Sequence record: MN655999
Reading direction: 5' to 3' (one strand)
Source of the DNA: Shigella phage Z31
Length of the DNA stretch: 64,000 nucleotides
A program made the translations under genes and the position numbers. A model generated the notes under the pieces. It had not been told where the DNA came from and ran no database searches. It saw nothing but the letters and a program-made list of their open reading frames with translations. Shown here one piece after another: positions 63,040 through 64,000 of this stretch (the stretch's first letter is position 1; every line of letters begins with the position of its first letter).

Positions 63040-64000
63040 ATCGGTTGTCCCAACCTCTGGGTCACCATCATATGTGAATAAAATATCTACCCTTCTTAAC
63101 AACCTTCTTAAGCTTACTCTCTATATATAGTTATATAGTACTATATAGTATCTTAGTATCTATCTAGTGGTCTTAATAGCCCCTCTGTATAGCCCTTCTA
63201 AATAGCCCTCTAACAAGCCTTCTTAACAATCTATACAATCACCTTAACCATCCCTCTACACACTCTTAGAAGCCCCTATACACCTCTTAATCTCTAGGTC
63301 AACTATGTTACCCTCTATAGGTGTTCACTAGGTACTACTAAGCCTCTATATAGACTGTTTTAACAAACTTAACAGGAATATCTTTACAGACCTTATCTCA
63401 CAAGGTCTAACACGGTACTAACAAGGTATCTTATAAGCCTGTTTATGCCTGTATTTTTAAAAGACTGTCTAGGTAATTATTCAGAATTTTAAAATTTTTA
63501 TAAAATAGGACTATCAAGTCATTTTTTAGGGTCTTTGAAGGAACTCAAAAATATCTGTCTAGGATGTATATCTGCTTGGTAGCCCTTAACATCCCTGTAA
63601 CGTCCCCTTTGCAGAATTTTAAAATATCCTTAACAATCTCTTAACAGTTACTACATCTTCTTAACATCTCTTCAAAGGTCTTAACAGATTCTTAACAGAA
63701 CTAACAAGGGCTTAACAGTTTCTTAACAGTTGCTACATGGTCTTTACAGATGCTTAACAGATGACTAACAAGGGCTAACAAGTTAATTTTGAAGGGTTAT
63801 TTTGTTAAGATAATTAACAAGTTCCTAACAAGTGTTTAACCTTTTTAACAAGCTATTAACATGGTCACAGTGGTTGTTAACAAACACAACTTCTCTTTTC
63901 TTATCGTTCCCTCTCTTTCTTAATTGGTATTGTTACCAATCCCTAGTGATTCTCTAAATAACCCTCTTAAAAGCTCTCTATAGCTCCTTGTAAGCTCTTT
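63040..64000. repeat. non-coding, strand-biased repeat region: TATATAG-type and AGCCC(C/T)TCT..ATAG motifs (63100-63400), then dense CTTAACAG / TAACAAG direct repeats (63600-63880)
   Basis: No ORF over 60 aa; pyrimidine-rich plus strand; at least 8 copies of (T/G)CTTAACAG at roughly 10-11 bp or multiples. Confidence 0.65.

Follow-up and report, generated by a model that had tools for sequence, protein, structure and literature searches.

The way in which exact-repeat genome ends are chosen and duplicated is understood in outline only for the phages T7 and T3. Duplicating a direct terminal repeat (DTR) needs DNA synthesis through the repeat, as established for T7. The T7 genome, which we checked here, has an exact repeat of 160 bp with three copies of CCTAAAG inside it, eight to the right of the left repeat copy, and two to the left of the right copy. 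These CCTAAAG arrays were named SRL and SRR by Dunn and Studier, and the packaging signals of T7 have been mapped elsewhere in the junction. The pac site of P1 carries seven TGATCA/G hexamers, split four and three between the two flanks of the region that is cut. The R-sites of lambda cosB and the pacL and pacR boxes of SPP1 are binding sites for the small terminase subunit. Origin iterons are typically 17–22 bp long, occur in 3–7 copies at ~ 22-bp spacing, and are found next to the initiator gene or inside it.

Felix O1-like phages are widely used in Salmonella typing, in biocontrol, and as an engineering chassis (e.g., Bas63). Short terminal repeats were inferred in the original Felix O1 paper (PMC3185647), and the length of the DTR has been measured repeatedly: 608 bp in UAB_Phi87 by Bal31 digestion and run-off sequencing (PMC4837284), 581 bp in Pr103Blw by PhageTerm (PMC8303462), and 613 bp in Ro111lw by PhageTerm (PMC6454146), with DTRs also assigned by PhageTerm to D4 and related phages (PMC11737134). 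With the boundaries used here, the homologous segment of UAB_Phi87 measures 614 bp. The DTR is already known for the genus; our literature search found no account of its internal anatomy or of the function of repeats in Felix O1-like phages, and no description of the phased, mirror-polar TTAACA arrays that are reported below.

We analyzed a window of 64,000 nucleotides of Shigella phage Z31 (MN655999), the last part of which had been described in an earlier note as a non-coding terminal ~ 1 kb with strong strand asymmetry. When the stretch 62900–64000 was compared with phage records, 252 of them matched, mostly at 90–96% identity, and by this homology the window comes from a Felixounavirus, i.e., a Felix O1-like myovirus. 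Its end appears to be the concatemer-junction region of a phage that packages DNA with exact short DTRs, as T7 does. Both parts of the earlier description hold. Based on the list of open reading frames, the last plus-strand gene stops at 62987 and the DNA at 62988–64000 is non-coding, the sole mechanical ORF past this point having 41 aa (63832–63957). The plus strand of this region is G-poor, with a GC skew of −0.31 to −0.46 at 62950–63400, compared to +0.15 to +0.25 in the upstream genes. The last gene of the arm transcribed toward the genome end (62382–62987, plus strand; 201 aa) matches PHROG 4330, a family of unknown function, and has no Pfam match. Its operon is closed by an intrinsic plus-strand terminator at about 62996–63031, consisting of a 10-pair stem and a T-run, and a terminator is annotated at the corresponding site of phage Moogle. 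In the relatives, the non-coding stretch is ~ 1.7 kb long and is located between two gene blocks that converge on it; on both sides transcription runs toward the region and ends in terminators.

The DNA at 62988–63577 is, by homology, unique DNA at one genome end. Within it, k-mer enrichment revealed a G-poor, non-repeated block at 63081–63440 (GC skew −0.46) with short motifs oriented on the plus strand, namely CTTCT(T)AA, CTCTATA/TATATAG, and three copies of TAGCCC at 13-bp spacing (63177, 63190, and 63203). The TATATAG-rich block that had been claimed to precede the repeats could be located here, at 63119–63150, and it holds three of the four TATATAG copies of the region. The TAGCCC triplet matches the terminal TAGCCC, but it is not significant after correction for multiple k-mers and was set aside. 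The block is followed, directly outside the DTR, by an AT-rich spacer (63441–63577) with a mean identity of 96% and 85% invariant columns, in which CAGAATTTTAAAAT at 63482–63495 recurs within the DTR at 63612–63625. A second repeat pair, 63197–63223 and 63953–63979, connects the block to the DTR interior. In phage ECP2307, the part of the block equivalent to about 63206–63230 contains the 13-bp unit CTAACAAGCCTT in four tandem copies, and thus motif blocks outside the DTR also change by gain and loss of units. Beyond the far DTR edge of the same phage, the unique non-coding DNA has conserved repeats (TTTACGTAACTTT in two to three copies, CTTTATAG, and GAAAGG in three to four copies) and two terminator-like hairpins before the first minus-strand gene.

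The edges of the DTR were obtained from relatives that are 90–96% identical to the window. In ECP2307 and NBEco005 the same sequence is present at both record ends, as exact repeats of 592 and 651 bp, respectively, and both repeats begin at the equivalent of 63578. Four independent linear records (D4, ZX4221, CRP22, and ECP2307) end exactly at GGTAGCCCTTAACA... and ...TGTTAAGGGGGC, and the ends of at least 10 records coincide with the DTR. The published lengths of 581–613 bp are in line with these edges. An exact repeat of the T7 type is therefore seen directly in close relatives and is assigned to the window phage by homology, which places its left edge at 63578 (GGTAGCCC...). One partial copy is in the window (63578–64000, the first 423 bp), and the far edge would be expected near position 64190, by homology with ph2-2. 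The guess that a genome terminus may be nearby was right, and it can now be sharpened to this left edge, with the repeat array inside the DTR. An inverted repeat with 6-bp arms (GGATGT...ACATCC), which encloses the left cut site, was considered and rejected, as it is not conserved in the consensus.

The array, at about 63587–63883 on the plus strand, comprises 17 TAACA cores in one orientation, the first TTAACA being located 9 bp in from the left edge of the DTR. In the non-coding region as a whole, 24 TAACA cores are found on the plus strand and four on the minus strand; 17 of these 24 lie within 63587–63878. The 330 bp of 63551–63880 contain 17 plus-strand cores, compared to 0.53 per strand on average in the background and to no more than 5 anywhere else in the window, and TTAACA was observed 17 times in the region with 0.7 expected (p = 3e-18). 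The units fall into the subtypes CTTAACAG, CTAACAAG, and TTAACAA/T. Exact CTTAACAG occurs seven times in 63368–63760, always on the plus strand and six times within the array, while CTAACAAG has six copies in the region, four of them in the array. The earlier note had counted at least eight copies of (T/G)CTTAACAG together with TAACAAG variants. The plus-strand repeats are real and become more numerous by looser counts (12 CTTAACA and 17 TTAACA), and TAACAAG was recovered in eight copies, but the number given for the longer form was slightly too high, with six of the seven exact copies being preceded by T or G. Successive cores are 9–11, 20–21, 31, 39, and 44 bp apart, mostly 9–11 or 20–21 bp. 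Rayleigh analysis gave a best period of 10.3 bp (R = 0.85), a value reached by 0.02% of random placements (p about 2e-4), in agreement with the proposed spacing of ~ 10–11 bp or multiples, and three other DTRs showed phasing at 10.2–10.4 bp. Such a period falls below the ~ 10.5 bp that free B-DNA has and, speculatively, would suit DNA that is wrapped on a protein. The sequence CCCTTAACA occurs three times within the 64-kb window; a single unit can thus not specify the ends, and specificity must come from the array.

Outside the terminal region, CTTAACAG has 13 matches and is ~ 3-fold over-represented; the listed positions are 2528, 7557, 9639, 15101, 18631, 19700, 32336, 48044, 54147, 57988, and 59735. 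Eleven of the 13 are in genes, and nine of those are antisense in one frame (..CT GTT AAG). These outside matches are mostly a codon-usage effect, and the idea of a motif acting genome-wide through dispersed binding sites was rejected.

Near the far DTR edge, which is outside the window, every genome carries 3–6 more plus-strand units followed by 2–5 inverted units. The inverted units have the form TGTTAAGRAAN at 11-bp spacing, and the last of them runs into the edge as TGTTAAGGGGGC, ending 6 bp from it in 27 of 27 DTR variants. Read inward, the physical ends begin with GGTAGCCCTTAACAT... and GCCCCCTTAACAT..., and repeats adjoin the cleavage positions at both DTR edges. The junction of phage Bas63 has the same anatomy, and the polarity of the units was also found in another genus. 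Between the DTR of Erwinia phage vB_EamM-M7 (Kolesnikvirus) and the Felix-type DTR, the only blastn match is 86 nt long and passes through the repeats themselves. M7 has an exact DTR of 444 bp with 7 plus-strand and 13 minus-strand copies of the TAACA core (~ 0.8 expected per strand), the plus copies being located toward the left edge and the minus copies toward the right. Both M7 ends start with TTAG and have TTAAC at positions 21–22. Furthermore, the DNA in front of the M7 repeat contains a TTCTAAR array that resembles the CTTCTAA block of the window. The DTR of Pseudomonas phage PaP1, from a genus whose large terminase subunit (TerL) is ~ 40% identical to that of the window, has ORFs and is without such arrays; they are thus not needed by the terminase clade in general. 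In a scan of IMG/VR for four TAACA units at 11-bp spacing, the hits beyond Ounavirinae were mostly unrelated simple 11-bp tandem repeats. One metagenomic contig of 6.7 kb (3300035561_000097) has a gene for a remote TerL relative (tblastx, 33% identity over 54 aa), and the 230 bp next to its end are densely packed with (T)GGTAACA / TAGTAACA units that point both ways; it may represent an unrelated lineage with a similar terminal array.

Conservation was examined in an alignment of 22 distinct genomes. The positions of the TAACA cores are 95–96% identical to the window, compared to 74–89% for their flanks (Mann–Whitney p = 6e-5), and each of the 21 other genomes keeps 15–17 of the 17 array sites. 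The block at 63081–63440 has a mean identity of 95% with 81% invariant columns. Overall, the unique DNA in front of the DTR is 95–98% identical with 81–85% invariant columns, which exceeds the values for the end of the neighboring gene. The least conserved part of the DTR is the C/T-rich interior at 63890–64000 (plus strand; mean identity 72%), which carries CCCTCT, CTCTATAG, and TCTTAA motifs similar to those of the block outside the repeat. The contrast with the coding DNA is also seen at larger distances. The junction has 65–79% identical positions in the comparison with Mooglevirus and Suspvirus, versus 26–32% for the adjacent gene, and the block together with the terminator has 69–79% in the comparison with Moogle and SUSP1, versus 26–32% for the neighboring gene.

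The terminase of the phage belongs to a lineage that generates DTRs. TerL, the nuclease and motor that has to make the cuts at the DTR edges, is encoded on the minus strand at 46463–48079 (PHROG 979, "terminase large subunit", E = 1e-233) and shares 99.6% identity with its counterpart in UAB_Phi87 and 69% with that of Kolesnikvirus; in the groups of these two relatives, DTRs have been demonstrated or inferred with PhageTerm (PMC4837284, PMC11984208). Searches of PHROGs and Pfam with 20 ORFs, taken from the surroundings of TerL and from the end of the arm, revealed no recognizable small terminase or DNA-binding neighbor, and the depositor annotation of CRP22, Rouille, and D4 lists no small terminase. 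The slot directly upstream of TerL, where the small terminase usually sits, is occupied in both genera by a short acidic ORF, of 66 aa in the window (48086–48286, minus strand) and of 60 aa in Erwinia phage Rouille, although the identity between the two is weak (30% over 43 aa). The 66-aa product is unlikely to bind DNA.

Taken together, these observations led us to propose that the TTAACA array is a cis-acting, putative protein-binding platform that positions terminase at both edges of the DTR, a reading to which we give about an even chance of being correct. Points against it are that no small terminase is recognizable, the ORF upstream of TerL being small and acidic, and that PaP1 does without such arrays. 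The CTTAACAG/CTAACAAG units would be duplex-DNA sites for a sequence-specific protein, probably phage-encoded, which may act as a non-canonical recognition subunit of the terminase. Some 17–23 sites would be presented on one helical face over the first 300 bp of the DTR, with two to five inverted sites abutting the opposite edge. Together they could carry a nucleoprotein complex, assembled cooperatively or by wrapping, that labels the repeat and directs the TerL nuclease to the two fixed positions of cutting. Going inward from either end, a (C)CCTTAACAT unit follows 6–8 bp after the cut. The conserved unique DNA at 63081–63577 may be part of the same recognition region; by its position, the block at 63081–63440 is a candidate packaging-recognition region like pacB in T7. 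The location of the sites inside the DTR, their phasing, the conservation specific to the cores, the mirror polarity, and the conservation across genera are observed, and from them we infer the binding of a protein, its identity, and its role in cutting and packaging. A more specific version, in which a dedicated DNA-binding protein of Ounavirinae polymerizes on, or wraps, ~ 300 bp of phased TTAACA and reads the mirror copies at the cuts, is put forward tentatively, since we would still lean against it.

Compared with the described systems, the CCTAAAG arrays of T7 appear to be the nearest architectural analogue, by analogy and not by homology, with the function of the T7 arrays being itself unproven. 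Both phages have an exact short DTR with fixed ends, an oriented short motif that recurs many times on one strand, in the repeat as well as in the unique DNA next to it, no genes in the repeat, and a unique conserved segment beside it at one genome end. In contrast, the T7 motif differs from CTTAACAG/CTAACAAG and is spaced at multiples of 13 bp instead of ~ 10.3 bp, no inverted copies occur where the T7 repeat has its far edge, and the Felix-type repeat is about four times longer. In addition, the T7 end carries the promoters A0, phiOL, and A1–A3, whereas Felix-type transcription runs toward the ends, and T7 has a recognized small terminase, gp18, whereas none is recognizable in the window phage. 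The pac site of P1 is similar in that clusters of short hexamers flank the cleavage positions and are read as an array and not as single sites. It differs in serving headful packaging with one initiating cut, in being located within the pacA gene, and in having a known binding protein, PacA. The P1 hexamers also contain GATC and are regulated by Dam methylation, while the window is without any GATC. Lambda cosB and the SPP1 boxes likewise place phased repeated elements beside a cut site, on DNA that an oligomeric recognition protein probably bends or wraps. However, these systems have 2–4 repeats versus 17–23 here, they produce cohesive ends or use headful packaging and not exact DTRs, and their TerS genes lie beside TerL, with none being recognizable in the window phage. 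The arrays are best filed with a known class, the cis-acting repeat arrays at phage genome ends.

The absence of GATC concerns all 64 kb of the window, for which shuffles predict ~ 189 strand-matches and a trinucleotide model predicts 213. None of the other 4-bp palindromes in the window is depleted more than ~ 2-fold. This is indicative of total counter-selection, directed at an activity specific for GATC, e.g., Dam/MutH or restriction of the DpnII/MboI type.

An origin, a partition site, a packaging site, and a regulator array had all been offered in the earlier note, and from this menu the packaging or terminus option fits best, with the motif abutting both edges in mirror orientation and its polarity being kept in a distant genus. 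An unlikely alternative is that the array is a replication element, either origin iterons bound by a phage initiator, with the adjacent AT-rich DNA as unwinding element, or a priming site for duplication of the terminal repeat. Like the iterons of plasmids and of lambda ori, the units are direct repeats in one orientation and on one helical face, next to AT-rich DNA (63441–63577), and a DTR can be duplicated only by synthesis through the repeat. One match to the DnaA-box consensus (TTATTCACA; 63073–63081, minus strand; 0.13 expected in the region) is located just after the terminator and is conserved in relatives. Nevertheless, "iteron-like" describes no more than a resemblance, and the label is not supported. 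Instead of 17–22-bp units at two-turn spacing, we found a TTAACA(R) core of 6–8 bp at one-turn spacing (10–11 bp), in ~ 20 copies inside a terminal repeat, with spacers that vary between genomes. There is no recognizable initiator-like gene adjacent, all neighbors being of unknown function and without a Pfam match, and the replication genes are ~ 50 kb away, near 9–16 kb of the window. In addition, the mirror orientation toward both DTR edges has no role in an origin model. For a partition centromere (parS/parC) there is no support, since Felixounavirus is reported as a strictly lytic genus and no Par-family matches were found among the neighboring genes.

The array might instead bind a protein that is unrelated to the terminase, such as an end-protection or bridging protein, a protein acting on the DNA that enters the cell first, a nucleoid-type organizer, or a host protein of Enterobacterales. 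A position at both physical ends would suit end protection or DNA entry, and the presence of the same core in phages from hosts as different as Escherichia, Salmonella, Citrobacter, and Erwinia is also consistent with a conserved host factor. Furthermore, TTAACA is one base off the sigma-70 −35 hexamer. Against these points, the region has no IHF, Chi, or GATC matches, promoter-like sites are not enriched, and no candidate protein is known. Mirror units that abut both cuts are explained more simply by the cutting machinery, and we consider a protein of this kind improbable.

The number of units varies, which raises the question as to whether they lack a function and arose by replication slippage or unequal recombination, the terminal repeat being non-coding and required only as a repeat. 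Among 27 distinct variants, the DTR ranges from 567 to 658 bp, and its indels are mostly 10–11, 21–23, or 33 bp long. Whole units are thus gained and lost, copy number being flexible while motif and register are not. At 63860–63890, the window, ph2-2, and one other genome share an insertion of 22 bp, equal to two helical turns, that the other 24 DTR variants lack; the inserted DNA includes GTTAAC, which reads as TAACA on both strands. Variation by indels implies that the phage can do without any one unit, and the phasing would be maintained by slippage itself, which counts against the packaging reading; the four copies of the 13-bp unit in ECP2307 point in the same direction. Against neutral repeats, the cores are conserved far better than their spacers, the junction as a whole is more conserved than the flanking genes, and in Kolesnikvirus the motif, its polarity, and its abutment on the edges persist while the rest of the DTR is unalignable. 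That the repeats are functionless is therefore very unlikely. That the region is an ordinary promoter-rich early leader or a small RNA gene is hardly credible despite the long non-coding stretch with AT-rich segments, since it has five promoter-like sites versus 3.8 expected, the genes on both sides run toward it and end in terminators, its best Rfam match (E = 0.085) is well below the gathering score, and its plus strand is too G-poor to fold (z-scores 0.07 to 0.87). A structured RNA or single-stranded DNA was also rejected, since neither strand of the region folded better than shuffles. The scenario that would have overturned the earlier note, a promoter-rich leader with unconserved repeats and termini mapping elsewhere, was checked and fails on all three counts.

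The finding of the array changes no general concept. As a putative cis-acting platform for the terminase, the array is an element that can be tested by mutation and could be used as bait for the missing recognition protein, and it is a warning for genome engineering near the ends. The pair GGTAGCCCTTAACA ... TGTTAAGGGGGC is a practical marker for the true ends in the many Felixounavirus records that have been opened arbitrarily. If the more specific version is true, Ounavirinae would recognize and measure the DTR with a system that differs from the pac, cos, and T7 pacB schemes already described, and whose conservation extends from the phages of Salmonella and E. coli to those of Erwinia.
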